DNA of 37,443 nt from an uncultured Rhodothermales bacterium (GCA_964512485.1 CAZEHJ010000031.1:1-37443); one strand, 5' to 3'; numbered from the stretch's first letter, positions 3-30,517 are shown. The notes: generated by a model not told the origin, from the sequence alone. Translations and numbers: made by a program.

Positions 3-2627
3 GGAGTGCTTGTAATCAGATTCGCCGATTTTGCGAAGCTGTCCCACTCCAAGTTTGTATCTATAGTTATTGCTTATGGGATCTGGAACACGCGCAACAA
101 GGCTGTTTGCCGGATTTCGCGTGTGAAGGAAAAACATGAAGGACACGCCCTTTCTCATGGCCGGAGTCACGACGGCTACGGCTTCAACTCTGGCGGTTGT
201 GAATTCAATGTGTCCGGCATCTACGAGCCGAGAGAAGGATGCATCGGCTGGTGTATCCGCAATGAATCCACTCTTCTGAACAGGTATGCGATCACTTTCC
301 GCAACGACGAGGTCACCTGATTCGATACCACGTTCAGCGGCATCATCAGGGTGAATCTCGACAAAGTTCGCCGGCCAACGATCCATGATCTGGGGTCGGC
401 GCAGCATATCATCGAATCCGGACTGCCAGATTTCACCAATCCGCCCGTTGGTAATCCACAGTTCACCCTCGCGGGGAGTCATGTATTCATAAAAGTCCGC
501 GAAATGCGACCATGGGCTCTTCATGAAGTTGGCTTTTCCACTCTGTGACTTGAATGCAGTCAGAATTTTGGAGTGAATAGTCGGGCCTTGAGGAGTATCC
601 AGATCCAGCGTCGAGTCGTGTAATCGCTTCGTACCTACCAGCTCTCCGTCGGCATATCGGACAGGTCCCTGAATTCCGGTAGTGCCGTAGGTCTTCAAGA
701 GATCATGACCTTTGATTCCGTCGCGTTTGGCCTTCCAGACGAGGGGGAAATAGTCCTTCCTCGAGCCGCGAGTGAAACGAGCGGCTTCTTCGAATACGTC
801 ATTCGAGTCTTCCCAGTCGAAGCCGGGGTAGCCCATTCGCTTGCCAACCTGGGCCGCGATCCACCAATCGGGTTTTGCTTCGCCTGGAGCATCATAGAAC
901 TTCGAATAGAGCCTGATTCTACGCTCGCCGTTGGCTCGGGCAAAGTCATCTTCGCCCCATGTGGCGGCAGGGAATATGATATCGGCATACGTGGAGCCCA
1001 ACGGCTCGCGCAGATATATATCCTGATTAACCACAACCATATCACCGGCATCAGCTCGTCGGATCAATTCTTCGGCAGCTGTTTCGGGGCTCGTGATCTG
1101 ATGTTCGCTGCCCCGAGTGAGGCCCAGGAAGGTCCTCATCAATCCCTGGGACGCCGTCATGCTTCCCAACCAGGTCGTTCCGACGGCCCAGGCAAAACGT
1201 ACGTTTCCGGATTCGATCCATCGATCCAGATCCAGGGGTTTGCGCCGACGTCCGGCGAATTTTTCAGGAGACTTCTCGAGAGGATATCGCCCGCCTTTGA
1301 TTCCACCGCGCTGATGGCCGCCGAAGCGAGAGATTACCTGTCCGGGCCGGTTTCCGGTTCCGCAGATGAGGGCCAAAGCTCCAATGGAGGCCGTATTCAG
1401 ATAGTTGTTGGACCAGTAATTTCCCTTTTCAATTCCGATGGATGTTTTAGGCCTGGACCCGTCAATTCGTGGTTTGGCCATGAGCTCAGCAGCACGAATG
1501 ATTCCTTCGCGGTCTACGCCCGTAATCCGTTCTGCGTTGTCAAGCGTGGCTTCTTCAACCGACAGCAGCCAGGACTTATAGTCGTCGAATCCTCGAGTCT
1601 GAAATGCGCCCCAGGTAGTTCGCCATTGCCAGGGTGTATTTCTGGTGCCTTGCCCGAATCCTGAATCCGATTCCCATTTATTGGATGTGTAGCGGTCGAT
1701 CCAGGCTCGATCTTCCCAGCCCTGTTCGATGATGTAGCGGGAGATGGCGAGGTGGAGTATGGTATCGGTTCCGGGAATGAGCCAGAGGTGCAGGCCGCCT
1801 GTTTTTTCTGCCCAGGCAACCCCCGTCGTTTTCCGTGGCACGATTGAAATTACTTTCATTCCTCGCCGGATGCCTTTCATGATCCACTCATTCCAGATCA
1901 CGGTTTTCGTCTCGAACGGATCGGTGCCCGACATGACCAACGTGTCCGCGAGTGACCAGTCCTCGTACGATGCGGCGAAATTGTCAAATCCTGTGTCCCG
2001 GAAGCCGGGCGTGTCCTCAGCGGTGGAGGGATTGTCATGGAAGGCGAACGCGGGAGTTTCGACGTGTCTCAATGCCAGTTTCGTGAGCGCGTACGTGTTT
2101 TCGAAGAACTGGTACGAATACATCTTCATCGCCCAGGAGTGCTCGCCGTACGTGTTGATCACGTGTTGGCCCACTTTTGCGACCGTGTCCAGAGCCAGGT
2201 CCCAGGATACCGGAACGAGTTCTCCATTGATGCGCATCAGAGGCGTCTTCAGGCGGTCTGCCGTCGCCGAGTCCGGGTTAAAGCATTTTTTGGCCAACGA
2301 GCCGCCACGAATACTGTGGTCGCCAAACAGATTAACCGCTTCAGCTTCAGCATCCGGAATAATCACCACATTGTGTGGAGATCCGTTGTGCGAGACCACG
2401 TTATGCTGATTTGGTCCCACCCAGAAACCCGTTCCGGGATCGCGTGGATAGTCGACGCCCATGGCGTTCTCACTCGCCGCCATGCCACCTTCGCTCCCAA
2501 CGGGCCAGCGGTAGACCTTGTAACCGCAACCCACGATGCAGTAGTCACACGCGGTAGTCAACACATCCGCGTCAGCTGGGGGCAGAGGTGTTCTTGAATT
2601 ATCAGGGGTCATGTTCTTGGTCGTCAT
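3..2627 (-). CDS. aioA: Mo-bisPGD catalytic (large) subunit of the arsenite oxidase AioA / iodate reductase IdrA clade; C-terminal ~10 codons lie beyond the window start (partial)
   Basis: Hand translation of the minus strand from ATG at 2625-2627 (4 nt after the Rieske gene stop) reads an open frame to the window edge. The ORF track omits it because there is no in-window stop. N-terminus is MTTKNMTPD...TACDYCIVGCGYKVYRW, carrying the Cx2Cx3C [3Fe-4S] motif characteristic of AioA. Later blocks (LHLWLIPGTDTILHLAISRYIIEQGWEDRAWIDRY, GERRIRLYSKFYDAPGEAKPDWWIAAQVG, C-terminal FMFFLHTRNPANSLVARVPDPISNNYRYKLGVGQLRKIGESDYKHS) are collinear with Alcaligenes/NT-26 AioA as I remember them. The plus-strand ORFs in this span (705..1664, 1744..2409, 2037..2597) are G/S/R-rich antisense artefacts. 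The symbol aioA is given at family level; the adjacent CCP genes make an IdrA (iodate reductase) identity at least as likely. Confidence 0.8.
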   Translation of the reverse strand, partial: MTTKNMTPDNSRTPLPPADADVLTTACDYCIVGCGYKVYRWPVGSEGGMAASENAMGVDYPRDPGTGFWVGPNQHNVVSHNGSPHNVVIIPDAEAEAVNLFGDHSIRGGSLAKKCFNPDSATADRLKTPLMRINGELVPVSWDLALDTVAKVGQHVINTYGEHSWAMKMYSYQFFENTYALTKLALRHVETPAFAFHDNPSTAEDTPGFRDTGFDNFAASYEDWSLADTLVMSGTDPFETKTVIWNEWIMKGIRRGMKVISIVPRKTTGVAWAEKTGGLHLWLIPGTDTILHLAISRYIIEQGWEDRAWIDRYTSNKWESDSGFGQGTRNTPWQWRTTWGAFQTRGFDDYKSWLLSVEEATLDNAERITGVDREGIIRAAELMAKPRIDGSRPKTSIGIEKGNYWSNNYLNTASIGALALICGTGNRPGQVISRFGGHQRGGIKGGRYPLEKSPEKFAGRRRKPLDLDRWIESGNVRFAWAVGTTWLGSMTASQGLMRTFLGLTRGSEHQITSPETAAEELIRRADAGDMVVVNQDIYLREPLGSTYADIIFPAATWGEDDFARANGERRIRLYSKFYDAPGEAKPDWWIAAQVGKRMGYPGFDWEDSNDVFEEAARFTRGSRKDYFPLVWKAKRDGIKGHDLLKTYGTTGIQGPVRYADGELVGTKRLHDSTLDLDTPQGPTIHSKILTAFKSQSGKANFMKSPWSHFADFYEYMTPREGELWITNGRIGEIWQSGFDDMLRRPQIMDRWPANFVEIHPDDAAERGIESGDLVVAESDRIPVQKSGFIADTPADASFSRLVDAGHIEFTTARVEAVAVVTPAMRKGVSFMFFLHTRNPANSLVARVPDPISNNYRYKLGVGQLRKIGESDYKHS

Positions 2628-2631
2628 ATAG

Positions 2632-3186
2632 TTACCCCGCCACATTCTGAGTTCGGCCAAAAATCAGGCCCATCATGGCGGTGGCATAGATCCAGTCGCC
2701 GTCGGTTTCGAGAACGACCTGGGGAAGGGATTCTGTTGCGTGTCCGGCGATCACCATTCCATGCCTGCGAAGATCGAAGGTGGTCAAATGGGAAGGACAT
2801 GGGCCGACGGCTGCGTGTTCGGCCTGATAGGCGCCGTGCAGTGGACCTCCCATGTGAGGGCATCGTGTGTGAAACGCTACAATGTCTTTCGCCGGTCCGA
2901 CGCCGCCGCCTGCTTCCGAATCCATCTGAACAAGAAAACAGGAAGAGTTTTCGTCTGGGTATTCGAAATAGATCGATTCGTGTCGTTTCAGATCAGAAAA
3001 TTTTGCGACGCGAACGCGATCATACGGGCTCACCCATGCGGGTATTTTCATTGCCTGCGCAACGCCCGGAATACCGGTCAACACGACCGTTATCGTCGCC
3101 GCACCCGATGTTTTCAGGAACGAGCGTCGACTGACACCGCCATCCAGAAGTGGACATGGCTCATTTGTTGATTGCGTATCCTTCAT
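2632..3186 (-). CDS. aioB: Rieske [2Fe-2S] small subunit with Tat signal (AioB/IdrB-type)
   Basis: 184-aa ORF. It carries a twin-arginine motif SRRSFLKTSGAA and Rieske boxes CPHMGGPL ... CPSH (CxH-x19-CxxH). It sits immediately upstream of the Mo subunit (4-nt gap), and its ATG overlaps the TGA of the upstream CCP gene (ATGA at 3183-3186). Confidence 0.8.
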   Translation of the reverse strand: MKDTQSTNEPCPLLDGGVSRRSFLKTSGAATITVVLTGIPGVAQAMKIPAWVSPYDRVRVAKFSDLKRHESIYFEYPDENSSCFLVQMDSEAGGGVGPAKDIVAFHTRCPHMGGPLHGAYQAEHAAVGPCPSHLTTFDLRRHGMVIAGHATESLPQVVLETDGDWIYATAMMGLIFGRTQNVAG

Positions 3187-4373
3187 TTCGACCCCATCGT
3201 GTCATCGATCGATCCATACTCTGGAAGAATGGGTCGTTCCGTTTTGATTTCTTCTCCTGACGTGCTTTCCAGGAACGCGACCAGTTGGCGCTGTTCGGTA
3301 GCTGTCAACCCAAGCGGTCTGATCAGATCCGTTTTGGTCCCGAAATCAAAATTGACCATGATCTGATCGTCGCGGCCTCCATCGTTGTAAAATTCGACCA
3401 CCTCCTCAAGCGTGTAGAATGCACCGTTATGCATGTACGGTGCGGTATACAACAGATAGCGCAGCATCGGCGTCCTGAATTTGCCCATGTCCACCGTCCG
3501 CTTGGTCACGTAATAGAGACCGAGGTCGGTTTTGACGGTCCGGTAGATCTCCTCCGTCACCCCCTTGGCGTATTGCTCATACCTGAACGTGATCTGCCTT
3601 AACTGATCGGTTTCGAAGGCAGGATTTTCGGGCACTCCGAGATTGTAGTATTTCTCATCGGTCAGCAGGGGACCGTCGTGGCACTGAATACATTTGCCTT
3701 TACCCGTGAAAATTTCCATTCCCGCGATGGCATCGTTTGACAGAGCAGTCAGGTCACCGCGCAAGTACCGGTCATATGGGGTATCCGTCTGAATAAGGGT
3801 TCGCTCGTACGCTGCTATTGCCCGCCAGGCATCCTCCAGATCTGGCCAGGGTGTTCCGAATACTTCGCGGAACATGGCTACGTACTGAGGAACCTGCCGC
3901 AGTCGCTCTTCCATCATGTCCCGTTCGCCATTACCTGCTACGGCACCCGAAGCGGCCGAAACCGCCTGAGCTTCCAGACTCTTTGAGGCCCCATCCCAGA
4001 ACAATTTGGCGAAATACGCCGAATTGATGATGGTCTGGCAATTCCGCCAGTGGGCCGTTCCGTTGTACCCACGGCACAGATCTGCTCCGTCCGTCCAACC
4101 AAATTCGTCACTGTGACAGTCGGCGCAGCTGATCGAGGCGTCACCAGAAAGCCGGTTGTCGTAAAAAAGGACTTTTCCGAGCTGTACTTTTGGATCGTCG
4201 AGTTGCGGATAGCCCAGTTCATCAACAGCTTGAGAGTTGTCTGAAGGTATGGACGGAGGTCCGAGAGGCGTCAGTTCGCGAAACGCCGGCCCGTTCGCCA
4301 GTCCGGTGATCAGGACAATTACAATCAGGGCCGGCAGGAGAGGTAGAAAGGGGACATTGCTGAATCGTTTCAT
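3183..4373 (-). CDS. dihaem cytochrome c peroxidase (CCP/MauG) family protein, long type (A1); IdrP-like
   Basis: 396 aa with signal peptide. It has two CxxCH motifs (CADCH, CIQCH) and CCP-family blocks LGKVLFYDNRLSGDASISCADCHS, FRTPMLRYLLYTAPYMHNG and LVAFLESTSGE, matching Pseudomonas CCP blocks from memory. The ATG is verified. Confidence 0.8.
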   Translation of the reverse strand: MKRFSNVPFLPLLPALIVIVLITGLANGPAFRELTPLGPPSIPSDNSQAVDELGYPQLDDPKVQLGKVLFYDNRLSGDASISCADCHSDEFGWTDGADLCRGYNGTAHWRNCQTIINSAYFAKLFWDGASKSLEAQAVSAASGAVAGNGERDMMEERLRQVPQYVAMFREVFGTPWPDLEDAWRAIAAYERTLIQTDTPYDRYLRGDLTALSNDAIAGMEIFTGKGKCIQCHDGPLLTDEKYYNLGVPENPAFETDQLRQITFRYEQYAKGVTEEIYRTVKTDLGLYYVTKRTVDMGKFRTPMLRYLLYTAPYMHNGAFYTLEEVVEFYNDGGRDDQIMVNFDFGTKTDLIRPLGLTATEQRQLVAFLESTSGEEIKTERPILPEYGSIDDTMGSK

Positions 4374-4374
4374 A

Positions 4375-5400
4375 TCAGTTTCGGGCCTCCCGCCAGTTTT
4401 TCATCGCCTGATAAGGCGGTGGCTCCGGAATTTTCACTTCGGGTAGCGCCCCGGACAGGCTTTCCAGGAACGCCACCAGATCATCTAGCTCCGTATCGCT
4501 CAAATCCAGACCATCTCCACGATTATTGTAAAATAAAACCACTTCCTGCAGCGTGGAAAACACGCCATTATGCATGTAGGGACCTGTATCGGCAACCTGA
4601 CGCAGCCCGGGGGTGATGAAGGCCCCCACATCGTCGTAATTCTTGGTTACGATGAACCGGCCGACGTCGCGTCGGGTTTGCATGTATCCCGGAACACCCA
4701 TGTTCTTGATGAACGCGCGATAGGTTGCATGTCGAAGTGGCTCTTCGAATACAGCCACATTTTCCGGTACGCCCGTGTTGTGGGCCATGCCATCGGTGAA
4801 ATCGCTGTCTGAGTGACAGCTGGAGCATGCTGCTTTACCTTCGAAGAGCTGTCGTCCTCGTTCGCCACTTTCGCTCATCGTTCCAAGGTCGTACGGGGAG
4901 TCGCCCGTTGTAAGCGTATTCTGGAAGGCAGCGATAGCTTTGAGTGTGCCACCGAACGATGGCTCAGACCCCAGCGCGTCTTGATACATCTGAACGTACT
5001 CGGGCACCTGTTTCATGCGCTCAAGCAGCAATCGACCGTCGAGATTCAAGAAGTGTGTTTCGGTGATGCCATCCCGAACCAGAGTTTCCACATCCGAGCC
5101 CACAAGTCGGCCGTCCCAGTAGAACGACGCATTGCGACTCACATTCAGCAGCGACTTGGCATTTCGGAACCCATCCGAACCCGGATAGGCTTCCGATAGC
5201 GCTTCACCGTCCGTCCAGGCAAACTCTGGACTGTGACAGGTGGAGCAGCTCATGCTTCCGTCACCGGATAGTCGGGGGTCAAAAAACAGGTAGCGCCCGA
5301 GATCGATCAACGCCTCATTATTGTCTTCTTCAGACTGAGGGTTGACAAAACCGTTGAGCAGCAGGAGAGCGACCGGCAGGAAGATGACGACCGCAAACAA
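4375..5400 (-). CDS. dihaem cytochrome c peroxidase (CCP/MauG) family protein, short type (B1); IdrP-like
   Basis: 341 aa with CSTCHS and CSSCHS motifs and blocks LGRYLFFDPRLSGDGSMSC, ITPGLRQVADTGPYMHNG and LVAFLESLSG. Its stop (4375-4377) is 1 nt from the A1 ATG (TGATATG junction). The start codon at 5398-5400 is TTG, with no in-frame ATG near the N-terminus. The N-terminus is hydrophobic and signal-like. Confidence 0.75.
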   Translation of the reverse strand: MFAVVIFLPVALLLLNGFVNPQSEEDNNEALIDLGRYLFFDPRLSGDGSMSCSTCHSPEFAWTDGEALSEAYPGSDGFRNAKSLLNVSRNASFYWDGRLVGSDVETLVRDGITETHFLNLDGRLLLERMKQVPEYVQMYQDALGSEPSFGGTLKAIAAFQNTLTTGDSPYDLGTMSESGERGRQLFEGKAACSSCHSDSDFTDGMAHNTGVPENVAVFEEPLRHATYRAFIKNMGVPGYMQTRRDVGRFIVTKNYDDVGAFITPGLRQVADTGPYMHNGVFSTLQEVVLFYNNRGDGLDLSDTELDDLVAFLESLSGALPEVKIPEPPPYQAMKNWREARN

Positions 5401-5642
5401 TCGGGGAGTTTTTGAGCACGCTCTGATGGTATTCTCCGGATAAGTTCAGGAATACACATCACGCTCTACAGACTTGAAATGGAGCCGGGTAGGGACTTCC
5501 AAGACGTGACTCGCCTTTCAGAGTTACACGCGCGGAATAAGTTAAATCTCAAGAAAGCAGGGCAATTTTGCAACCGACTTTCGGAGGATTCAGACGGCAG
5601 GGAAACCCCTATTTGCACATCCCTCCAAAAAAGCCCCAATGC

Positions 5643-6848
5643 CTAATTACCACTATTTGCGGGGGTAGCAAAGACGTCATATTCGGGAAGAACCGGACGC
5701 TCGATTTTGATCTCTTCTCCACTCGTACTCTCAAGGAAAGCAACCAGTTGACGTTTTTCCTCATCCGTCAAGCCAAGAGGCTTCAGAAGATCCGAGCGGG
5801 TACTGCTACCGGCCAGCGCTTCGAAATCGTTGGTTCCACCACCATCATTGTAGAAATCAACTACTTCTTCCAATGTGAAAAAAGAACCGTTATGCATGTA
5901 TGGCATTGAGTATTTCAGGTAACGCAGCGGCGCGGTTCTGAATTTCCCCATGTCTTCGGGCTGCTTCGTTCCCAGATACAGTCCGAGGTCGGATTTTACA
6001 ACATCATATATCTCAGGCGGAACGCCTCGACCAAATTGCTGGAAGCGAAACGTGATCTGAATGAGCGGATCAGTGGCAAGCTTCGAATTGTCAGGTACAC
6101 CAACATTGTGGAATTGCTGGTCGGACAGCAGTGGACCGGTGTGACACTGAATACAGGCAGCCTTTCCAAGAAAAAGGCCCATTCCTGCCTTGGCGTCGTC
6201 CGTGAGTGCCGTCTGGTCTCCTCGCATGAAACGATCGAAGGGAGTATCCGGCTGAATAATGGTTCGTTCAAATGCCGAAATCGCCCGCCAGATGTCGTCT
6301 CCTTCCGGCCATTCCGTCCCGAACACTTTCTCGAATCGGTCGACGTATTCAGGAATCTGACGTAGTCTTTCCTCCATCATATCCGGATGGCCGTGTCCTT
6401 CTACTGCGCTTGTGGCAGCGCCTTTCGCCTGGTCTTCCAGTCGGTCGGATCGTCCATCCCAGAAAAGTTGGTCCTGATACGCGGAATTGACCACGGTCGG
6501 ACAATTTCGCCAGTTACCTGTCCCCTGATAGGCCAGACACAGATCCTGTCCGTCACTGAAGCCGAACTCGTCGCTGTGACAATCCGCACAACTGACGGAC
6601 GCATCTCCTGAAAGACGGTTTTCGAAGTAGAGCATTTTGCCGAGCTCAACCTTCGGATCGTCCGAAAGGGGGAATCCGTTTTCGTCTACAGATTGAGGAT
6701 TGTCCGACGGAATCGGGGGGGCTCCAAGAGCCGCAAGAGAAGGCGCCTCCTGCTTCACGGCGCTTACCGAAATCGTAGCAGCGGCGATGACAAAGAGTGC
6801 AAGCACCAAAAACAGTGGGGCGAAAGGAATACGTAGAAGGGCTCTCAT
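5643..6848 (-). CDS. dihaem cytochrome c peroxidase (CCP/MauG) family protein, long type (A2), paralogue of 3183..4373
   Basis: 401 aa with signal peptide. It carries CADCHSDEFGFSDG and CIQCHTGPLL motifs and blocks MGKFRTAPLRYLKYSMPYMHNG and QLVAFLESTSGEEIKIERPVLPEY, nearly identical to A1 blocks. The ATG is verified. Confidence 0.8.
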   Translation of the reverse strand: MRALLRIPFAPLFLVLALFVIAAATISVSAVKQEAPSLAALGAPPIPSDNPQSVDENGFPLSDDPKVELGKMLYFENRLSGDASVSCADCHSDEFGFSDGQDLCLAYQGTGNWRNCPTVVNSAYQDQLFWDGRSDRLEDQAKGAATSAVEGHGHPDMMEERLRQIPEYVDRFEKVFGTEWPEGDDIWRAISAFERTIIQPDTPFDRFMRGDQTALTDDAKAGMGLFLGKAACIQCHTGPLLSDQQFHNVGVPDNSKLATDPLIQITFRFQQFGRGVPPEIYDVVKSDLGLYLGTKQPEDMGKFRTAPLRYLKYSMPYMHNGSFFTLEEVVDFYNDGGGTNDFEALAGSSTRSDLLKPLGLTDEEKRQLVAFLESTSGEEIKIERPVLPEYDVFATPANSGN

Positions 6849-6849
6849 A

Positions 6850-7884
6850 TCAGTTGCTCACCTCTGCCCAGTTTTGACTTACTTCGTATGGGGGCATTTC
6901 CGGCTCTTCAATGTGTGGAATCGTCCCGGAAAGACTCTCCAGAAACGCGATCAGATCAGACGATTCTTCAAGGCTCAAATCCATTCCACCGTCACTGTAG
7001 AAGGCAACTACGTCATCGAGCGTATCAAATATTCCGTTGTGCATGTAGGGCGCGGTGTCCGCGACCTGTCGCAGATCTGGAGTGATGAACGCAGCCCTGT
7101 GCCGCTCGTCTCCCGTTTGGGCCAAATGTCCCGGATCCTCGCGAAGGGACATGTGATCGGGCACGTTGTGATCTTTCAGGTAGAGCCGAAACGCCGTGTG
7201 CCGTAACGGATCGGCGGTGATGTCCGGGTTTTCCGGGACTCTCATGGCATGGGGCAGTCCATCGGTGTATCCCTCGCCGCTGTGACACGAAGCACAATTG
7301 GATTCGAAAACTGCAGATCCGCGCTGTGCAGTTTCACCCATAGGAGTGCTGCCTTGGGTGGTAAGCGTATTCTGAAAGGCTTCCAGAGCCCGGATGGCTC
7401 CTTCATATGAAGGAATTTCAGCCAATGATTGTTCGAAGAGATCCACGTACGCTGGGATCTGCTTCAAACGCTCGGTCAACAGTCTGTCGTTAAGATTCAG
7501 GAACAGTTTGCCGCCGATCATCTCGGCCGTGACGTTGGCCACGGACGCACCTGCAGGGCCGCCATCCCAGTAATAATTAGATCGTTGAGATACATTCAGG
7601 AGCGATTTCGAATTTCTGAAGCCGTCTGCTGCCGGATAGGTTTGAGAGAGCGCCGTGCCGTCAGCCCACGCATGATCTGGGTCATGACACGTGGCACAAC
7701 TGATGCTCGCATCTCCGGAAAGCCGATTGTCGAAAAATAGATACGTTCCCAATTCGACGAGCGCATCCTGATCAACCTGCGGCTGAGGGGTACATCCGTC
7801 CAGTAATAGTGTAAAGAAGGGAACGAGAAGCAATGTCGGGGCAATTCCAAGTCCCGAACGAACGCTAATCGATGGTAAACTCAA
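6850..7884 (-). CDS. dihaem cytochrome c peroxidase (CCP/MauG) family protein, short type (B2), paralogue of 4375..5400
   Basis: 344 aa with CATCHDPDHAWADG and CASCHSGEGYTDG motifs and blocks ITPDLRQVADTAPYMHNG and LIAFLESLSG. The same TGATATG stop/start junction with A2 occurs at 6846-6852. The start at 7882-7884 is TTG, and it overlaps the upstream gene stop by 20 nt. Confidence 0.7.
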   Translation of the reverse strand: MSLPSISVRSGLGIAPTLLLVPFFTLLLDGCTPQPQVDQDALVELGTYLFFDNRLSGDASISCATCHDPDHAWADGTALSQTYPAADGFRNSKSLLNVSQRSNYYWDGGPAGASVANVTAEMIGGKLFLNLNDRLLTERLKQIPAYVDLFEQSLAEIPSYEGAIRALEAFQNTLTTQGSTPMGETAQRGSAVFESNCASCHSGEGYTDGLPHAMRVPENPDITADPLRHTAFRLYLKDHNVPDHMSLREDPGHLAQTGDERHRAAFITPDLRQVADTAPYMHNGIFDTLDDVVAFYSDGGMDLSLEESSDLIAFLESLSGTIPHIEEPEMPPYEVSQNWAEVSN

Positions 7885-8611: not shown

Positions 8612-8612
8612 G

Positions 8613-10034: not shown

Positions 10035-10259
10035 GAAATTAAATGAAAATGGTCCTGTCCAGACGAATATCTGACGACGATAGACGGGTAGCACTAGTTA
10101 CAGTTTCAATTCGACAGAAAATGTGGGATAAACCCTACCCTATCGCCCCGTTGCGTGTCACTTTGATTGACTACGAGACAAACTCCGTGCCTGGGGCGAA
10201 TCCGCCTCTGAAACGTGATTTAGGTTCCCGGCAGTGTTTCAAATTGAGTACAGCGGTGT

Positions 10260-11672
10260 TCAATTCAATCCAACTGAACTCGAATTGGCACCGAAGACTG
10301 TGTCGATCTCGATTCCGCAGTCATTCAGAAAGCCCGTTGGCAAAGTCCCACCGGCAAATATGAACACAAAATCATTCGAAATCGACAGTTCAGTGCCGTC
10401 TTCACCTTCCAAAGTGACATCCCCGTCAGAAATATCAGTCACGTTGGTCTGGAGCATCAGCTGAACTCTTCCATTTTGAACGGCTTCGTCTAAACGGGCT
10501 GAATTGTCCGGCTTGATCCGTGAAAATGAATCCCTACGGTAGGAGAGATGAACCCCAGTGTTCGCTTCACCACACAGGCTTAACGCGGCCTCGACCGCTG
10601 AGTCGCCGCCTCCGACAACCAGAATTCGGTCCCCGGAGAAGTGCGATGGGTCTTTGAGCGAATAAAAAACGTTGGGTCGGTTTTCGCCGGATACTCCAAT
10701 TTTTCGCGGGATCCCCCTGCGACCGATCGCCAGAACCACATTTTGTGCCCGATATGAATTGGTCGAAGAGGTAATCTCGAAATACTCCGCACCCACTTTT
10801 TGGACTGAGTGAATCATCTCGTGAACCTGAACCTGAAGGCCACATTCTTCAACAACACCCGTCCACAATTGCAATAATTCTTCCTTCAGATATTCCCTTG
10901 ACGTCATGGAGGTTGCGTCGGTAAGTCTCATGGGCTCAGTCATCACCAGCTTTTTTCGAGGGTAATTGAGGACCGTGCCTCCGATATCATCTTTTTCAAT
11001 TACCAGATAGTTCAGGCCCTTTCGATGTGCTTCGAGAGCAGCCGCGAGACCAGCGGGTCCACATCCAACGATCAGGAGGTCGAGAATCTCTGAATTCAGC
11101 TCGGGTGTTATCTGTTCAACACACTGTCGACCTTGTTCGAATGCGTTGCGGATCAATCCCATCCCGCCAAGTTCGCCGACAACGAAAAGTCCGGGCACAT
11201 TCGTTTCGAAGTTTTCCTTGATGCGGGGAAGGTCTACTCCTCGTTTGGAAGTTCCGAACACGAGCTGAATAGCATCGACCGGACATGAACGCTCGCACAA
11301 TCCGTGGCCAATACACCGAGCTGGAGAAACCGGTATGGCCTGCCCCGAAATCAGTCCGAGAACATTTTTTTCAGGACAGACGCTCACACAATTCCCGGTG
11401 CCAATGCACTGATCCGGGTTGACGACGGGATGGAGGGATGCTGGCCGATACAGCCCGAGTTCCAGAGATTCTGCCTGAGCATCGATTACTGCGCGTTCCT
11501 GCCGGACCATGCGCACGACGTACGGCAGGACGAAAATCGCCGCCAGCACAAAGAATATCAGCCATATCAAAAGTGTCGAACTCAGAAGCTGATGCCATAG
11601 TTGATGAAAAAAGTAGAGGATGTTACGCTCGAACTCAGGTGGGCGCGTTGCCTGATGGACAGGTATCCCCAC
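10260..11672 (-). CDS. membrane-anchored 2x[4Fe-4S] ferredoxin domain fused to TrxR-like FAD/NAD(P)-binding oxidoreductase (ferredoxin-NAD(P)+ reductase-like)
   Basis: Two CxxCxxCxxxCP motifs are present (CIGTGNCVSVCP, CIGHGLCERSCP). Dinucleotide folds LIVGCGPAGLAAALEA (FAD) and ILVVGGGDSAVEAA (NAD(P)H) are present, with no CxxC redox disulfide. There is an N-terminal TM helix LLSSTLLIWLIFFVLAAIFVLPYVV. The start is uncertain: the ORF-track start is GTG at 11672 and overlaps the upstream OM-protein gene by 90 nt. A TTG (codon 35) just after that gene's stop, or the ATG at 11510, are alternatives. The TM helix lies between the OMP stop and ATG 11510, arguing for an upstream start. Confidence 0.65.
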   Translation of the reverse strand: MGIPVHQATRPPEFERNILYFFHQLWHQLLSSTLLIWLIFFVLAAIFVLPYVVRMVRQERAVIDAQAESLELGLYRPASLHPVVNPDQCIGTGNCVSVCPEKNVLGLISGQAIPVSPARCIGHGLCERSCPVDAIQLVFGTSKRGVDLPRIKENFETNVPGLFVVGELGGMGLIRNAFEQGRQCVEQITPELNSEILDLLIVGCGPAGLAAALEAHRKGLNYLVIEKDDIGGTVLNYPRKKLVMTEPMRLTDATSMTSREYLKEELLQLWTGVVEECGLQVQVHEMIHSVQKVGAEYFEITSSTNSYRAQNVVLAIGRRGIPRKIGVSGENRPNVFYSLKDPSHFSGDRILVVGGGDSAVEAALSLCGEANTGVHLSYRRDSFSRIKPDNSARLDEAVQNGRVQLMLQTNVTDISDGDVTLEGEDGTELSISNDFVFIFAGGTLPTGFLNDCGIEIDTVFGANSSSVGLN

Positions 11673-13177
11673 TTGTCCATGCGGAATCGTACCGATGCGC
11701 CGGCAATGTGTGACAGGGCCAACGGGCCAAGCTGATCAACTGCAAGAAGAGAGTATTCTAACCCGAGAGTAAGTCTTCGGAGTTCTTTTTGAAAAGAAGT
11801 GGAGCTGTATAAGGTGCGCCCTCCGGGACGCTCGAACACACTTGTTGAATTGGAAATCCGAAATGGCATCCAGCCTGGTTGCGTCCGGAACGATGCCGTT
11901 ACAGAGTTGCTCTTTTCTGAGCCCGAAAACGAATTGGATGACACGGTTAGCCCCACAAGATGGGTTCGTTTTTGCCAGGTTATCCCCGCAGAGGTCTGAT
12001 TTTTCCTGGCCGAGTAGCTTGCGTCGGTTCGCCAGTATGGGAAGTATTGTCTCGATCCATACCGGCCTGAAAGCCTCAAGGTCTCCGATATGGGCGAGCT
12101 CGCTCGAACGTAAAATCGACTGACATCCCATTTTCCGTCGATAGGTGACTCGTCGATCTGTAGGGAGGTGCTCAGGCGTGTCCTCCCGAGTCGGGATTTT
12201 TGTTCAATGGAAATAAAGGAATAGGGTCGAAGCATCCGGCTTCCATCGATTCGAGTAAAAGCAGTCATCAAGGAGGTTGATCCTCCAGTGTGTTTTTTGC
12301 TCACATCTGAAAAGACGGAAATCTTATTGATGTCAGTCTGGAAGGCTTCACTGTATCGATCCGGTTCAAATCCACCCGATACTCCGAAAAGGAAATCACC
12401 GGTTTTGAACGAAACATTGAGGCCATCCCAATATCCCCCTGCCGGGGTGTGACGCTCTCTGAAACGTCCGGCTTCCAGCGACAATCCCGAGGAGATCTGG
12501 CTCTGATATTTGAGCTCGTACATCCTGAAGGATCCTGAGCGAGAGACGAGGTCTTGCGAACTGAATCGCCTCGATCCCCTGGCACTGAACATGAAGCGGC
12601 CACTACCCGGAAGTCCTTCCACGCGCATTCTCAACGATGAAACTGGATTCATGTACTGGCGAGAAGACGAACGTGTGTCGGTGAATTGGCCTTTGACCTC
12701 AGAGACCGAAGCGGTCAGCGAAGCGCTGTAATACCCGTGGACCTGCACACCCGACGATCTTGGGTCGGTCCGAACACCAACCGGACGTCCGAGAATGCTC
12801 CGACGCTCTTCAGCCAGATCGAGGTCTTGTTCAGGTCCGTGCTCTTTTCGCGGGCCAACCAGGACGAGTTCATTTCCCACTTCCAGCGACAGAGGGTCCA
12901 AAAGCCAGACCAGAAGGAGAGACGTCGATGACTTACCCGCAACACGGGAAAGAGCCCGTGTATCCTCATTTTGAAGCACCATCAGCGTGTCGCCCCGTTC
13001 CCACTGCGCATCACTGACATCGACATAGATGCCTCGGGCCTGGACCCGGCTCACCACCACCCTGAGGGAATCGGTCTCGCTACGTGAATCTGTGGGCGAT
13101 TGGGCCGTCGCATCATTCGCAATGAGGAAGCAGACCATAATCGTCGCAAGGAGTCGGAGCTTAATCATCGTCGTCAT
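11582..13177 (-). CDS. putative outer-membrane beta-barrel protein (porin-like), signal peptide, C-terminal Phe
   Basis: 531 aa with signal peptide MTTMIKLRLLATIMVCFLIANDATAQ (ATG verified). Alternating hydrophobic/polar beta-strand pattern throughout, and a C-terminal ...TFFINYGISF ending in aromatic F, typical of OM barrels. I recognise no specific family. Confidence 0.6.
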   Translation of the reverse strand: MTTMIKLRLLATIMVCFLIANDATAQSPTDSRSETDSLRVVVSRVQARGIYVDVSDAQWERGDTLMVLQNEDTRALSRVAGKSSTSLLLVWLLDPLSLEVGNELVLVGPRKEHGPEQDLDLAEERRSILGRPVGVRTDPRSSGVQVHGYYSASLTASVSEVKGQFTDTRSSSRQYMNPVSSLRMRVEGLPGSGRFMFSARGSRRFSSQDLVSRSGSFRMYELKYQSQISSGLSLEAGRFRERHTPAGGYWDGLNVSFKTGDFLFGVSGGFEPDRYSEAFQTDINKISVFSDVSKKHTGGSTSLMTAFTRIDGSRMLRPYSFISIEQKSRLGRTRLSTSLQIDESPIDGKWDVSRFYVRASSPISETLRLSGRYGSRQYFPYWRTDASYSARKNQTSAGITWQKRTHLVGLTVSSNSFSGSEKSNSVTASFRTQPGWMPFRISNSTSVFERPGGRTLYSSTSFQKELRRLTLGLEYSLLAVDQLGPLALSHIAGASVRFRMDKWGYLSIRQRAHLSSSVTSSTFFINYGISF

Positions 13178-14261
13178 CCTCCTTCCCGTCCGGATGGCAA
13201 CTCAGGCACGCGAGACTCTCGTACACGTAATCCGGTTCGTCATCGTGCTCGTCATCCATCTTGTCCTTACGATGTTCATGACAATCGATACACGTGAAGC
13301 TGGTCATATCGGGGGCTGCTTGATGGCAGTCTGAGCAATTATCCCATTCTCCTTTGTGCTCACCGGAATAGATGGGGAAAAATGGAGCATCGTGATCAAA
13401 ATCCGAGGCACCGTCCCAATCATTCTGATTGTGACACTCAAGACAATTCAGCGGAAATCCGGAATTGCGATGTTCGTCTTCATAGTCGGCTTGATGACAG
13501 GCGTAGCAGTCGTTCTGGTCCAGAGCAGCAAACACAAGCTCAAACGAGGGTTGGATATGACAGCTTTCGCATCCCGCAAACTCGTGTGCCCCAATCAGTT
13601 CAAATCCGTCTGAAAGGAGTGAGTGTTCGGGGAATATGGCGTCCGGCCAGACGTGTTGTGTGTGACAGTCCTCACACTCCTGCGAGAATCCATTCTCTTC
13701 GTGGGGGATGACCGTCGTTTCGAGATAGGCTGATTCGTGGCACGTGATACAGGTGGGCTGGTCCCCGAAGTACCACCCTCCCAAATCGTCGTCATGACAA
13801 CTTTCGCAGGCGATGACTTCGTGCGATCCGATGAGGGGAAACGACGTGTCCAGATGTATCGCGAATCCGTCGATGTCACGGAAGGAACGTTCATTATGGC
13901 AGGTCTCACATGTGGGGACCAGCTTCGAATTATGAACATCTTCGTGACAATCCGCACATTCCCGAATGATGGCCGATTCTGGCTCGAATTCCAGGCCTGA
14001 ATGACATGAAGCACATGCCGCTGTCTCGTGTGCAGCCAAAAGGGCGAACGCTGCGTCATTTTCATGATCGAAAGCGGCCTGCGGATCCATCGGTGTCCAG
14101 GCATTGGACGAATGGCAGTCGCTACACGCGATTGTCGTGTCCCAATCACCGTGAGGGCTGTCTATCGGGTTGTCTTGTGCAGAGGACTGGCTGGCCCCCA
14201 TCAACGCCGAAAAGATCAGACAGAATATTGTCACTCTTTTTCTCATGGAGTTATTCTTCAT
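13161..14261 (-). CDS. multihaem c-type cytochrome, 13 CxxCH motifs, signal peptide, poly-Asp C-terminus
   Basis: 366 aa. I counted 13 CxxCH motifs, many in the paired arrangement FDHx...PLxGxHx...CxxCH. The protein ends ...CLSCHPDGKEDDDDD. The ATG is verified, and its start overlaps the upstream gene stop by 11 nt. Confidence 0.85.
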   Translation of the reverse strand: MKNNSMRKRVTIFCLIFSALMGASQSSAQDNPIDSPHGDWDTTIACSDCHSSNAWTPMDPQAAFDHENDAAFALLAAHETAACASCHSGLEFEPESAIIRECADCHEDVHNSKLVPTCETCHNERSFRDIDGFAIHLDTSFPLIGSHEVIACESCHDDDLGGWYFGDQPTCITCHESAYLETTVIPHEENGFSQECEDCHTQHVWPDAIFPEHSLLSDGFELIGAHEFAGCESCHIQPSFELVFAALDQNDCYACHQADYEDEHRNSGFPLNCLECHNQNDWDGASDFDHDAPFFPIYSGEHKGEWDNCSDCHQAAPDMTSFTCIDCHEHRKDKMDDEHDDEPDYVYESLACLSCHPDGKEDDDDD

Positions 14262-15951
14262 TTTCGTTTCCTCCGCTGTGACAATCTTTGCATTCTGTTT
14301 TTACACCACGGTACTGCACAATCATTTCTCCGCGACTATCCCCTTGTTCCTTGTGGCAACTGGCGCAGGAGACATCCGTGTGAGCTCCTTCGAGAGGCCA
14401 GCCGCTCAGATCATGGTCAAAAGCGGTCAACCGGAATGACACATCGTCATGGCACGTGGCACAGCTCGTTGCTTCAAACTGGCTACCGTGTGGGTTTTCG
14501 TCTTCGTGACAGGAAGCGCAAGAAGAGTCCAGTTCCCGGTATTCCACGATGTCCAGATCCGTTTGTGTGTGGCAGGACGAACAGGCGATTATTGCATGTG
14601 AGCCTGCGAGAGGGAATTCTGTACTCGAATGATCAAATGACGAAGACGCTTCGATCCATGATTCGACGGCGTGACAACTATCACAGGTCTCTGGCGAGAA
14701 TTGTTGTTCGTGTGGATCATCTTCCAGGTGACAACCCTCGCATGTTTGATCCTCAACTTCGAACGAGATATGCGAGATAGCCTCCCCGGATGCCGGAATG
14801 TGGCACTGGGCGCATAGTACGGCCATGTGCGCCCCTTCTAGCGGGTATTCCGTCTCTTCCTGATGGCGAAAAACATCAAACTCAGACGGTGCCCAACCAA
14901 ATTCAGTGTGACAAGAAACACACCCTACGGGATCTGTACTTCCGTCATGATTGTCCACGTGGCAACTTTCACAGGCTTCTGCAACGGGGTGTGGATACTG
15001 ATTGCTCAGCGTACTCCGGATGAACTGAATCGAAATCTCGGGTAGCGTTTCCGAATCGTTGTGGCATGAAGCACAGGTAGCGGATTCATGAAGACCGATA
15101 AGTGGGAATTCCGTGACATCGTGGTCGAATGTTGTTTCGAAGTCAGAGGCCGCGATGGAATTCCATCCAGTGGTGGCGTGACAGGATGCGCACGTCGAGC
15201 CAAATGTGCCTGCATGAACATCTTCGTGGCAAGCCGAGCACTCGGCGAATTCCAGCGGTTTGTAAACAACGACATCGGGATTGCCCGTAGCAGGCTCATG
15301 ACACGTCTCGCATGAAAGGTCGAAATGTTCACCGGTCAACGGATATTCTGAGTCATCATGATCAAACAGAGGCACCTCTTCCCAGACCCCGCTGTCATGG
15401 CAGGTACTGCACGCTACCAGCTCAAATTGTGATTCATGAACGTTGTCCGGGCCATGACACGATTCGCAATCCTCAATCAATCCCAGAAAGGTGGGTTCAG
15501 AGACGACATGTTGAGATTGGAAGACCAGGAAATTTTGATCTGACAGATTCTCTCCGGAATGACAGGACAGGCAACTGGTCTCCTCGTGGCTCAACAGCAG
15601 CTCGTATCCTGTTGCTTCGTGGTCGAAGCTCAGCGTGTCGAATCGAATGGAATCGAAATCTCTTCCGAAGTGGTCCTTGTGACAGGTTGCACAGTTCGGC
15701 TCATCGAACGTTGCATGCAGGCCCAGGCCATCATTCATCCTGCTTTCCAACGAAAAATGACAGTTCAGGCATAGTGAATCGCTGATGCCACGGTTTCCCA
15801 ATTCGTGGCAAGTAGTGCAAGATTCGATGGTATCCCAGACTTCGTGATCCTGAATCAGTTCACCGGGTGAAATGAGTTGAGCATACGCGTTGGCCGGGGC
15901 CAGAGCTACGACAACCAAAATCAGGACAGTTATGTGGGCACGGTTCAGCAT
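14251..15951 (-). CDS. multihaem c-type cytochrome, 20 CxxCH motifs, signal peptide
   Basis: 566 aa with signal MLNRAHITVLILVVVALAPANAYAQ (ATG verified). I counted 20 CxxCH motifs, with repeated FDH...E[FY]PL.G.H...C.SCH modules. Confidence 0.85.
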   Translation of the reverse strand: MLNRAHITVLILVVVALAPANAYAQLISPGELIQDHEVWDTIESCTTCHELGNRGISDSLCLNCHFSLESRMNDGLGLHATFDEPNCATCHKDHFGRDFDSIRFDTLSFDHEATGYELLLSHEETSCLSCHSGENLSDQNFLVFQSQHVVSEPTFLGLIEDCESCHGPDNVHESQFELVACSTCHDSGVWEEVPLFDHDDSEYPLTGEHFDLSCETCHEPATGNPDVVVYKPLEFAECSACHEDVHAGTFGSTCASCHATTGWNSIAASDFETTFDHDVTEFPLIGLHESATCASCHNDSETLPEISIQFIRSTLSNQYPHPVAEACESCHVDNHDGSTDPVGCVSCHTEFGWAPSEFDVFRHQEETEYPLEGAHMAVLCAQCHIPASGEAISHISFEVEDQTCEGCHLEDDPHEQQFSPETCDSCHAVESWIEASSSFDHSSTEFPLAGSHAIIACSSCHTQTDLDIVEYRELDSSCASCHEDENPHGSQFEATSCATCHDDVSFRLTAFDHDLSGWPLEGAHTDVSCASCHKEQGDSRGEMIVQYRGVKTECKDCHSGGNENEE

Positions 15952-15957
15952 CAGATT

Positions 15958-16578
15958 CTATTGCCGTTCGTCGAGGCGTCTCAATGAACTGCTGACCATC
16001 GACTTGACAGCTTCATCGGTAACCGTTTCTTCAAGGCCCTTCCAGATGCTTTGAGCTTCGGCGAAATCGCCGGAATTAGCTGATATGGCACCCAGATTGT
16101 ATATGGCGAATTCATCTCCGGGATATACGTCGAGCATCTCGCGAACCGCTTCTTTGGCCAAATCCCATTTTTCGTCCACCGCTCTTGTCGCCGCCAGATC
16201 GAGCCAGACCTGCCTCGCTCTCGGGTGTTGCAACAGGTAATTGGAATAGTGCATATCCGCGTCTTCCAACCGATGACTGTCCTGAAGCACTCTGCCGAGT
16301 TCGCGCATCGCCAACGTGTCGGCGGGGTTTGTTCTTATCTGTTCTTCCAGGACAAAAATCCTCTGGAAGTACGCGTCAGATACGTTTTCACTCGACGGTG
16401 CGCTTCCGACGGATGAGGAATTTGGCGTGCCAGGAAGTATCCCCGCCGGTGTGTCCGGATGGACAAAACCATCCTGGAGGACCGAAGAATCGACGCCGGA
16501 AACGAAAATAAAATAGAATCCAACAATGAGTAGCGGGAGAGCTACTGCAATCATCAGACGATAACGAGATGGGCTCAT
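15958..16578 (-). CDS. membrane-anchored tetratricopeptide-repeat (TPR) protein
   Basis: 206 aa with N-terminal TM LMIAVALPLLIVGFYFIFV. TPR-like helices follow (AMRELGRVLQDSHRLEDADMHYSNYLLQHP, VWLDLAATRAVDEKWDLAKEAVREML, YNLGAISANSGDFAEAQSIW). Its ATG overlaps the TGA of the upstream membrane protein (ATGA at 16575-16578). Confidence 0.6.
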   Translation of the reverse strand: MSPSRYRLMIAVALPLLIVGFYFIFVSGVDSSVLQDGFVHPDTPAGILPGTPNSSSVGSAPSSENVSDAYFQRIFVLEEQIRTNPADTLAMRELGRVLQDSHRLEDADMHYSNYLLQHPRARQVWLDLAATRAVDEKWDLAKEAVREMLDVYPGDEFAIYNLGAISANSGDFAEAQSIWKGLEETVTDEAVKSMVSSSLRRLDERQ

Positions 16579-17441
16579 GTGATCCAGAAATATCCAAACG
16601 TGAACGCGACACCGATATGTAACAGCATGATGGCAAGCATTATCAGTGCGAGAGGAAGGTGAAATACATGCCAGTATCCGAACAGGCGCTGAAAAACCCC
16701 GCTTACCGACGTCTGCTGTACCAAATTTTGATAATCCATGACTCGCCGAACAAACACGATGGATTCCGTGTCGGCCATTCCATCGCTGCGGGCCATGAGC
16801 AGAAGGGCCTTTCTTCGAGTCGAAATGCTCAGATCTCGTTTGATCGCTGCCAACAGTCGGGACATCCAGCCATCACCGATTTGTGGGCCTGCGGTCTCGC
16901 GAACAAATTCAGAAACTCTTGAATCAGCGACGTTATGATACTCCTTTATGGAGTGAAGCAGATGTTTCTGGCGAGCCAACAGCGCGCTTTCGGACAGAAA
17001 CTGACCGTCCGTCGCTTTTGGAATGCGAACGTAAATGTATCGGCCAAATATTCCTGAAAGAACTACGGCAATCATGCTCCAGAAGGCGATGGAAATTACA
17101 CCACCAAATCTGAAAGCAGTGTGCAAAAGCACCAGCCAGGGACCGAGTGTACAGAGAAAGATGTGAATGGTGAGCCAGTTTCGGAGCTGCCCACTCTGTT
17201 CAAATCTCCGTACCCGCTTTCGAACACTGTACATGGCGACCCCCACAATCATCATCAGGCTGCCGATGATTCCCATACCGTGTCCAATGAAACCGGAGGG
17301 TTTGTAGAGTTCGTGGAGGTCAGAGTACGCCCGATCGTGCAGAGGAAGCGTGTAGTATTCAAGACCCGCGGCAAGGCTGACAATTGCGACCAAAAGCCAG
17401 ATGGAAGTCAGCGCTATGTGTTTGACAGTCTTTCCCGACAT
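16575..17441 (-). CDS. integral membrane protein, putative dihaem b-type cytochrome (quinol-interacting anchor)
   Basis: 288 aa with about 5 TM helices. Two helices each carry a His-x13-His pair (H93/H107 in LTIHIFLCTLGPWLVLLHTAF; H261/H275 in HVFHLPLALIMLAIMLLHIGVAF). This is the same spacing as the bis-His haem ligands of cytochrome b. The ATG is verified. Function is inference only. Confidence 0.55.
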   Translation of the reverse strand: MSGKTVKHIALTSIWLLVAIVSLAAGLEYYTLPLHDRAYSDLHELYKPSGFIGHGMGIIGSLMMIVGVAMYSVRKRVRRFEQSGQLRNWLTIHIFLCTLGPWLVLLHTAFRFGGVISIAFWSMIAVVLSGIFGRYIYVRIPKATDGQFLSESALLARQKHLLHSIKEYHNVADSRVSEFVRETAGPQIGDGWMSRLLAAIKRDLSISTRRKALLLMARSDGMADTESIVFVRRVMDYQNLVQQTSVSGVFQRLFGYWHVFHLPLALIMLAIMLLHIGVAFTFGYFWIT

Positions 17442-17620
17442 GGTAAGAGCGCTATTGGTGCGCCGAGGGAAAGGCCAGAATTTTCCTGCGGGTCTTTAGA
17501 GAGATTGGTTCAGGATTTTGGCCTAAACCAAGATAGGGGAATTCTGATCCAGTATTGATTTGAAAATGCACTATTACCTTACGACGCAAAGGGTAATGCT
17601 GGGCGACCAGTATTCGGGCG

Positions 17621-29169: not shown

Positions 29170-29277
29170 GTCTGGGTAGTAGGGACCTATTTGAACGCCA
29201 CACGTTGAAGCACTCGCTACTCGAGCAGCACCGGAGTATCGACAAATCACTGGCCAACACCAAACCTTTTGGTTCTA

Positions 29278-30495: not shown

Positions 30496-30517
30496 GCAAT
30501 ATCCTCACCCTCCCTAC

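Follow-up and report, generated by a model that had tools for sequence, protein, structure and literature searches.

The window analysed here, a stretch of 37,443 nucleotides from an uncultured Rhodothermales bacterium (GCA_964512485.1, CAZEHJ010000031.1:1-37443), carries on its minus strand, between positions 3 and 17441, an array of 14 consecutive co-directional genes for a Rieske-molybdoenzyme, dihaem peroxidases, multihaem cytochromes and an outer-membrane (OM) β-barrel. Our favoured reading, to which we assign a probability of about 0.72, is that two respiratory modules, arranged head to tail, make up the array: an iodate reductase (Idr) operon, termed block A (3-10108, minus strand), and a separate envelope-spanning electron module, block B (10260-17536, minus strand), which contains the multihaem cytochromes and the barrel. 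Comparison with related loci, labelled L001, L005 etc. below, reveals a lineage-restricted neighbourhood of two autonomous modules, which are recurrent neighbours yet separable. A sequence-only reading of the same DNA had taken the array for an Aio/Idr-type enzyme hard-wired to a multihaem, barrel and dihaem-b set, serving either respiratory iodate reduction or the oxidation of arsenite.

An Idr-type enzyme with two peroxidase pairs

The part of block A that encodes the enzyme and its dihaem cytochrome c peroxidases (CCPs) comprises the following features:

3-2627, minus: idrA, Mo-bisPGD catalytic subunit (PF18465/PF00384/PF01568, i.e. Rieske_3 + Molybdopterin + Molydop_binding; TIGR02693)
2632-3186, minus: idrB, Rieske [2Fe-2S] subunit (CPH...CPSH) with a twin-arginine (TAT) signal, SRRSFLK (PF00355, PF10518)
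3183-4373, minus: dihaem CCP of the IdrB-proximal type (IdrP; CCP_MauG, E = 2e-43)
4375-5400, minus: dihaem CCP of the distal type, second IdrP (CCP_MauG, E = 7e-38)
5401-5642, minus: spacer of 242 nt between the peroxidase pairs
5643-6848, minus: duplicate of the proximal-type peroxidase (60% identity to the 3183-4373 product)
6850-7884, minus: duplicate of the distal-type peroxidase (50% identity to the 4375-5400 product; CCP_MauG, E = 5e-30)

The idrA gene is cut by the contig end, leaving 875 amino acids (aa) visible; a 100%-identical database copy (P0001) has 887 aa, i.e. 12 C-terminal residues are missing. The product displays an N-terminal 3Fe-4S motif (C27-x2-C30-x3-C34), lacks a signal peptide and scores 445 bits against TIGR02693 ('arsenite_ox_L', cutoff 359), with the idrB product scoring 117 bits against TIGR02694 (cutoff 96). 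The match to 'arsenite_ox_L', the annotation of database homologues as arsenite oxidase, and the alignment of AioA H195, R419 and H423 with the invariant H197, R434 and H438 all speak for an AioAB-type enzyme that oxidizes arsenite (or another substrate) and exports the electrons via an OM conduit. However, this proposal is contradicted by the phylogeny of the Mo subunit. In a neighbour-joining tree of 27 sequences and 886 columns AioA split off from all other proteins (100/100 bootstraps), and the window protein fell inside the IdrA clade, in a monophyletic Rhodothermales group (100/100) nested with the IdrA of Azonexus hydrophilus NCP973, to which it is 54% identical, and with taxa that have been described as deep lineages of IdrA. 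It thus does not lie outside both the Aio and the Idr clades, an outcome which the sequence-only reading had allowed for. The identities follow the same division, with 54-66% to IdrA-clade proteins and 30-34% to AioA, whether of solved structure or plasmid-borne, including the experimentally characterized ones. A tblastn search against plasmids was likewise bimodal, with three Idr-type matches at 51-56% (one of them Azonexus hydrophilus NCP973) and all AioA at 28-31%. Among database proteins, its neighbours (57-66% identity) belong to Methylomirabilales, Planctomycetota, Nitrospinota, SAR324 and Alphaproteobacteria, and the IdrA-specific peptides WQWRTTW and TTACDYC are both present in the window protein.

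Contextual information points in the same direction. The gene order CCP-CCP-Rieske-Mo is that of Azonexus NCP973, every recovered full-length IdrA locus has IdrB and both CCP types, and idrB orthologues adjoin IdrA in all of these loci. The presence of CCPs is the criterion by which Reyes-Umana et al. tell idr from aio, loci of the latter kind being devoid of them (PMC8692401), and the window has four. Profile scans bore out the earlier remark that neither aioXSR nor ars genes occur in its 37 kb. Azonexus hydrophilus NCP973 is an isolated iodate respirer in which idrABP1P2 is induced during iodate reduction, and the Idr clusters of two metagenome-assembled genomes (MAGs) from oxygen-minimum zones (OMZs), neither from Rhodothermales, were able to reduce iodate after expression in E. 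coli (PMC13455634). On the strength of the clade placement, the CCP-CCP-Rieske-Mo synteny and the orthologous CCP pairs we reject arsenite oxidation, which we regard as highly improbable. The Mo/Rieske pair, at first assigned broadly to the Aio/Idr type, is classified by its sequence as Idr-type and not Aio. The window enzyme nevertheless shares with AioAB (NT-26, Alcaligenes faecalis, Thermus HB8) the fold, the 3Fe-4S cluster, Mo-bisPGD and a TAT-exported Rieske subunit (PDB match, E = 1e-86), as well as a cupredoxin (azurin in the case of Aio) or cytochrome c as probable redox partner. It differs from AioAB, apart from the low identity, the separate clade and the absence of aioXSR beside four CCPs, in its predicted catalytic direction, which is opposite.

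The four peroxidases, compared with those of Idr systems, proved to be two copies of the IdrP pair, orthologous to the Azonexus CCPs. Identity of the 3183-4373 product to the IdrB-proximal CCP of Azonexus NCP973 is 54%, and to its counterparts in L004 and L005 75-76%; for the 4375-5400 product the corresponding values are 45% (distal Azonexus CCP) and 63-67% (L004/L005 counterparts). Judging from the identities between the copies, the distal pair (5643-7884) is a diverged tandem copy of the IdrB-proximal pair (3183-5400). Four CCPs are found in the window, L001 and L008, and two in L004 and L005. The spacer between the pairs has no DNA-level conservation with relatives, no Rfam match and a fold z-score of -1.4.

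Some unusual variants were observed among the relatives. In a Myxococcota bin (L035, 7141-9372) both Idr peroxidases are apparently fused into one four-haem protein of ~750 aa, and a similar four-haem ORF is present in a Phycisphaerae bin (L042, 7082-9376). A contig binned as 'Methanobacteriota archaeon' (L061) has an IdrA-type gene of 60% identity (1671-4238), accompanied by IdrB and CCPs, which represents either mis-binning or an archaeal Idr.

Accessory genes of the Idr operon

Block A is headed by two genes for potential electron carriers:

7865-8611, minus: secreted cupredoxin-like domain fused to a CarboxypepD_reg-type β-sandwich, 248 aa (PF13620/PF14686 in the C-terminal part)
8613-10034, minus: secreted monohaem cytochrome c (PSCyt1) fused to a β-propeller (PF07635, PF10282)

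The first of these has a signal peptide and, upstream of the C-terminal sandwich, the residues H136, C178, H181 and M184 (C-x2-H-x2-M), all of which are shared by every one of 37 homologues whose genes adjoin IdrA. These homologues (L013-L077) come from KSB1, Calditrichaceae, Latescibacterota, Planctomycetota, Nitrospinota, Myxococcota and several proteobacterial bins. The protein has no cupredoxin Pfam match, and a sequence search of the PDB gave nothing relevant. The His/Cys/His/Met set corresponds to the ligand set of a type-1 copper centre, and the invariance of the set upholds the label 'cupredoxin-like' for this putative cupredoxin fold. Azurin serves AioAB, and by this analogy the cupredoxin::β-sandwich protein is a candidate type-1 copper electron donor to IdrB. 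It is a conserved accessory gene of the Idr clusters of many non-model phyla; the Idr papers that we searched do not mention such a partner, and a literature search for idrA with cupredoxin or Bacteroidota was empty.

The PSCyt1::propeller protein matches YVTN-type propellers in the PDB. A NosZ- or hydrazine-synthase-like role was considered and rejected, as the scores fell far under the cutoffs. Orthologues with 68-86% identity head block A in L001, L004, L005, L008 and L091, and the gene was found only in Rhodothermales Idr operons, with none in 79 other loci. At the opposite end of the operon, all Rhodothermales relatives have a Porin_5 outer-membrane gene directly after idrA (L001 11976-13052, L004 9953-10975, L005 12737-13849), which in the window would sit just past the contig end, and whose product is possibly an iodate/iodide channel. 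In two relatives multicopper oxidase genes adjoin the Idr operon or lie near it (L005 2824-4506, L004 17687-19567). Known iodide oxidases are multicopper oxidases, and these genes could hint at an iodine redox island.

Relative to the IdrABP1P2 systems of Pseudomonas sp. SCT, Denitromonas iodatirespirans IR-12 and Azonexus hydrophilus NCP973, the window has a molybdoenzyme of the same clade, the same Rieske/TAT partner and two dihaem peroxidase types in the same P-P-B-A order, along with a predicted periplasmic location. It differs in its Rhodothermales host, the duplicated peroxidase pair, the neighbouring block B, the absence of a sigma-54/two-component regulator pair and the Porin_5 gene that follows in relatives. 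Further, it is headed by the c-haem::propeller and cupredoxin::β-sandwich genes, whereas the known operon is instead followed by a small cytochrome c. The Idr papers searched do not mention Rhodothermales as a host; block A is an Idr operon in a host phylum new for Idr, with new accessory carriers.

Block B and the gene layout of the array

Block B consists of six genes and a conserved upstream region:

10260-11570, minus: membrane-anchored 2x[4Fe-4S] ferredoxin domain fused to a TrxR/YpdA-type FAD/NAD(P)H oxidoreductase (Fer4 families; Pyr_redox_3, E = 2.5e-51)
11582-13177, minus: outer-membrane protein with a signal peptide, small N-terminal β domain, 22-strand β-barrel and C-terminal Phe
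13161-14261, minus: 13-haem c-type cytochrome with a Sec signal and no lipobox (13 CxxCH; cytochrome c3/c7 families)
14251-15951, minus: 20-haem c-type cytochrome with a Sec signal (20 CxxCH; cytochrome c3/c7 and MtrC/MtrF II-IV domain families)
15958-16578, minus: membrane-anchored TPR protein, weakly CcmH/CycH-like (TPR families)
16575-17441, minus: five-helix inner-membrane protein of 288 aa with five invariant His, putative dihaem b-type cytochrome; first gene of block B
17442-17536, minus: upstream region of block B, conserved with L006 (blastn homology 16529-17536)

The order in relatives is membrane protein, TPR protein (not always present), 17-20-haem cytochrome, 10-27-haem cytochrome, an OM protein without Pfam match, and the ferredoxin-FAD protein. 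Orthologues of the last of these (52-73% identity) form the last core gene in eight of the eight other block-B loci tested (L006, L008, L010, L091, L092, L093, L098, L099), and for this reason the gene was assigned to block B and not to Idr. In its product, basic residues come after an N-terminal helix and there are two 4Fe-4S motifs, and the PDB matches are YpdA/Bdr and TrxR-type FNR; as it has no TAT signal it should face the cytoplasm. The 531-aa product of the barrel gene is indeed predicted to form a barrel, of 22 strands, with no sequence relation to MtrB/PioB and structurally no nearer to MtrB than to generic porins or TonB-dependent transporters. The genes for the two multihaem cytochromes overlap or abut the barrel gene, and inspection of the N-termini by eye, with no predictor, found no lipobox Cys after the signal peptide of either. 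Orthologues of the 20-haem protein have 17-20 haems. Those of the TPR protein match PF23914 over most of the profile with 27-37 bits, under the cutoff of 42, and the protein is possibly an apocytochrome chaperone (CcmI-like helper). The five-helix protein, putatively a dihaem b-type cytochrome, belongs to a family of >860 clusters, and the barrel family has 616 representatives, with few close homologues of the window barrel. A third multihaem gene (16-22 haems) follows the flavoprotein gene in L006 (12992-14593), L010 (12843-14606), L098 (16903-18219) and L099 (18051-19361); this gene is missing from the two loci with Idr directly abutting block B (window, L008), and L091/L004 have it in degenerate form (remnant at L004 3-581).

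Taken together, the parts of block B suggest a chain that would lead from cytoplasmic NAD(P)H or quinol over the inner membrane, via 33 c-haems, to an OM pore. Its closest parallels are the porin-cytochrome conduits of Shewanella (MtrCAB/DmsEFAB) and Geobacter (Pcc/Ext), in which periplasmic multihaem cytochromes are likewise encoded beside a large OM barrel, and the window multihaems match MtrC/MtrF II-IV and, sub-threshold, DmsE decahaem models. In contrast to those systems, the window barrel, with its 22 predicted strands and N-terminal domain, is not homologous to MtrB/PioB, the cytochromes have 20 and 13 haems and not 10, a lipoprotein cytochrome is apparently absent, and the inner-membrane partner is a b-type-like protein with an Fe-S flavoprotein instead of CymA, ImcH or CbcL. 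The five-helix protein was compared with the cytochrome b561/DUF4405 dihaem-b family (E. coli CybB; FdnI/HyaC type) and the NOX/MsrQ-Fre logic; it has sub-threshold Pfam matches only, no Foldseek match and a helical insert of ~100 residues between helices 4 and 5. A search of the literature for Rhodothermales or Gemmatimonadota with multihaem and porin was empty. It is quite unlikely, in our estimate, that block B is an unrecognized envelope conduit of Rhodothermota and Gemmatimonadota (NAD(P)H-Fe-S flavoprotein to dihaem b to 33 or more c-haems to 22-strand barrel) that was recruited in marine Rhodothermales as a dedicated electron supply for Idr.

Gene and domain labels were assigned with Pfam and NCBIfam profiles, and ORF listing and translation recovered the 14-gene minus-strand array with the coordinates, junctions, gaps and haem counts first described for it. 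ATGA overlaps are present at 16575-16578 and 3183-3186, TGATATG junctions at 4371-4377 and 6846-6852, and larger gaps at 10035-10259 (225 nt) and 5401-5642. Besides the two multihaem proteins, CxxCH motifs occur twice in each of the four CCPs and once in the PSCyt1 protein. The domain labels (Mo, Rieske, four CCP_MauG, PSCyt1 + β-propeller, two Fer4 + Pyr_redox_3, TPR) also hold. The tight packing is real, but gaps are not limited to 6 nt: the start of the ferredoxin/FAD gene is, going by the length of its orthologues (430-455 aa), most likely the TTG at 11570, which gives a protein of 436 aa and leaves an 11-nt gap. The start of the cupredoxin gene is to be corrected from 8845 to the ATG at 8611, 1 nt after the preceding stop.

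Linkage of the two modules

An alternative to two separate modules is a single supra-operon, in which block B would be a dedicated wire from NAD(P)H or menaquinol over the 33 c-haems and the cupredoxin or c-haem::propeller to IdrAB, replacing an input of the alternative complex III or bc type, and in which the barrel might link the chain to extracellular donors or acceptors. The distribution of the blocks bears directly on this question. Each module is self-sufficient elsewhere. Block B is present without Idr in L010, L092 (Gemmatimonadota), L093 (a 1.9-Mb contig), L098 and L099, that is, it occurs alone in Gemmatimonadota and other Rhodothermales. Block A in turn has unrelated neighbours in L005 (CAYLHF010000005.1 of GCA_964383365.1), a full Rhodothermales-type operon with no block B in the ~4.6 kb upstream, and L011 likewise shows no block B. 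In the IdrA relatives closest to the window (90%, 82% and 78% identity) the order PSCyt1::propeller, cupredoxin, CCPs, IdrB, IdrA and Porin_5 is kept throughout, while the gene preceding block A varies, being an opposite-strand AraC-type regulator (L001/L002), an opposite-strand fucosidase (L004) or a multicopper oxidase (L005). In L001 and L002 no block B is seen, though the contigs end ~1.9 kb upstream of block A and it possibly lies farther upstream. L006, from the same sample as L002, has block B and the third multihaem gene before its contig ends, L002 starting with the AraC gene and block A, and the two may be parts of one genome.

On the other side, the adjacency seen in the window recurs. 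A second lineage (GCA_018662045.1, 'Bacteroidetes Order II') has block A directly after block B, in the same direction, with a barrel only 49% and an IdrA 81% identical to those of the window. An assembly chimera as the source of this junction was rejected, for it was recovered in three independent assemblies at 99.4-99.6% identity. In a third lineage, L091, which is the same strain as L004 (100% identity over 3.1 kb), block B is followed at the same site by ~1 kb that includes a multihaem remnant, by the opposite-strand fucosidase and then by block A. An upstream context of DUF5686, a small ORF, Rrf2 and sulfatase is common to the window, L006, L007 and L091, and the order DUF5686/Rrf2/sulfatase, block B, block A to the window, L007 and L091. 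In marine Rhodothermales both blocks share one chromosomal site and in two lineages are directly adjacent; the synteny, which had been singled out as worth searching for, is present in some relatives and hence not absent from all. L007 matches L008 at 99.5% identity through block B and into the first part of block A, until the identity breaks inside the third CCP (17846-18486 in L007, 12542-13003 in L008); L007 lacks idrBA/Porin_5, unrelated genes follow, and the flanks differ on both sides from L008. It is either a deletion variant keeping block B or an assembly chimera.

Beyond this group the arrangement was not encountered. No homologue of any block-B protein occurs within 10 kb of ~75 IdrA loci of other phyla, and just nine IdrA loci of other phyla have any ORF with at least 4 haems, these being sporadic and unrelated (4-10 haems); examination of six of the nine showed class-I multidomain cytochromes, proteins with 4-5 haems, a fusion of two CCPs and a single 10-haem protein. 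In comparison with 80 other IdrA loci, only this Rhodothermales group has Idr next to a multihaem/barrel set. The literature searched, including idrA with multihaem and iodate with Rhodothermales, holds no description of such a set beside Idr, in agreement with the initial impression that the combination was undescribed.

The sequence between the blocks falls into two parts:

10035-10108, minus: conserved upstream region of block A, candidate promoter/operator, containing TGAAACTGTA-N7-CTACCCGTCTATCGTCGTCAG
10109-10259, minus: non-conserved junction between block B and block A

DNA homology between the window and L001 (72% overall) continues for 74 nt beyond the PSCyt1 start on its upstream side and ends at 10108. 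Within this stretch the window and L001 have a 10-mer and a 21-mer in common without mismatch, and the 21-mer is identical in L002 as well. In L001 the 74 nt must contain the block A promoter since the upstream AraC-type gene is divergent, and we infer from the conserved elements that block A probably has its own promoter in the window too. The remaining part, 10109-10259, matches no relative and has a fold z-score of 0.0.

The supra-operon draws its support from the co-directional adjacency in two lineages with strongly diverged barrels, the shared site in the third, the absence of the third multihaem gene of L006, L010, L098 and L099 exactly where Idr abuts block B, the restriction of the c-haem::propeller to this clade, and the lack of a terminator in the gap. 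A precedent exists in Shewanella DmsEFAB, where the decahaem/barrel pair DmsEF feeds a Mo enzyme that reduces iodate (PMC9732548). However, beyond the independent occurrence of each module, an opposite-strand gene stands between the blocks in L091/L004 and before block A in L001, block A has its own conserved upstream element, L007 keeps block B with idrBA missing, and all linked cases may stem from a single insertion event, which would make the association effectively n = 1. We therefore consider a single supra-operon unlikely, and the claim of one hard-wired machine is not supported in view of the stand-alone blocks, the intervening opposite-strand gene and the conserved element upstream of block A.

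Several observations nevertheless weigh against two separate modules. The blocks stay neighbours across lineages whose DNA is only 65-72% identical, always co-directional and with B upstream, and this persistence could result from selection for linkage. The PSCyt1::propeller, confined as it is to Rhodothermales operons, could be an adaptor to block B. The 225-nt gap has no terminator-like hairpin or unusual structure, so that read-through from block B into block A is possible, and the promoter prediction comes from one close relative, L001. Finally, iodate reduction by this clade is predicted from clade membership and synteny. On balance, functional coupling of block B to Idr appears reasonable yet unproven, and we lean against it. 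The original proposal of iodate reduction accordingly divides in two: the enzyme is Idr-type and iodate favoured as substrate, but block B as its dedicated wire is unproven.

The gene content, family placement, module boundaries and distribution described above fit a scheme of two modules in which enzyme activity, carrier roles, topology and any flow of electrons from B to A are predicted. By analogy with AioAB, IdrB with its TAT signal would carry the signal-less IdrA into the periplasm, where IdrAB would reduce IO3- to HIO/I-, and the two dihaem peroxidase pairs would remove H2O2 and other reactive by-products. The Rieske centre would receive electrons from the cupredoxin::β-sandwich protein, the monohaem-c::propeller protein, or both. 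Block B would place the cytoplasm-facing 2x[4Fe-4S]-FAD NAD(P)H oxidoreductase and the probable dihaem-b protein in the membrane, and add to these the CcmI-like TPR helper, 33 periplasmic c-haems on two proteins and the 22-strand OM barrel. In a clade of marine Rhodothermales the Idr island lies downstream of block B at one chromosomal site.

Neither scans for terminators and promoters nor folding of the two gaps exceeded shuffled controls, no motif of at least 9 nt is common to the regions upstream of blocks A and B, and Rfam has no match anywhere in the window, hence no Moco riboswitch. The Rrf2-family gene (19046-19564), on the minus strand upstream of the array like the sulfatase gene, is the only regulator in the window, as had been observed. 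However, in all relatives it is paired with the sulfatase gene and not with the redox blocks, and as its product has no cysteine it cannot bind an Fe-S cluster. A divergent HisKA/OmpR-type pair, missing from the window, is found upstream of block B in L007 (3029-5187), L091 (7081-9156) and L099 (1876-4072). The window further encodes, 12 kb from the Mo-enzyme operon, a ThiF/MoeB-rhodanese fusion (29269-30495), possibly a molybdopterin-synthase sulfurylase. DUF5916 and MacB/FtsX genes lie downstream of Idr in L001 (13481-19545), and similar genes beyond block B in the window (30452-32743, 34080-36782), and these swapped positions indicate rearrangement around the locus.

Iodate reduction controls the accumulation of iodide in oxygen-minimum zones, and Idr is known mainly from Proteobacteria, SAR324 and a few deep lineages. 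The locus described here adds marine Rhodothermales to these hosts, with an extended operon that includes a cytochrome::propeller and doubled peroxidases, and brings to light a putative blue-copper protein with invariant ligands, which is widespread and as an Idr partner apparently undescribed. The six to seven genes of block B form a conserved multihaem/barrel/flavoprotein module that has so far been unannotated and is a possible new trans-envelope electron route. If the conduit interpretation is true, no Idr system before this one would have been wired to a module of the porin-cytochrome kind, and OMZ iodate reduction would potentially be linked to extracellular or particulate electron donors.

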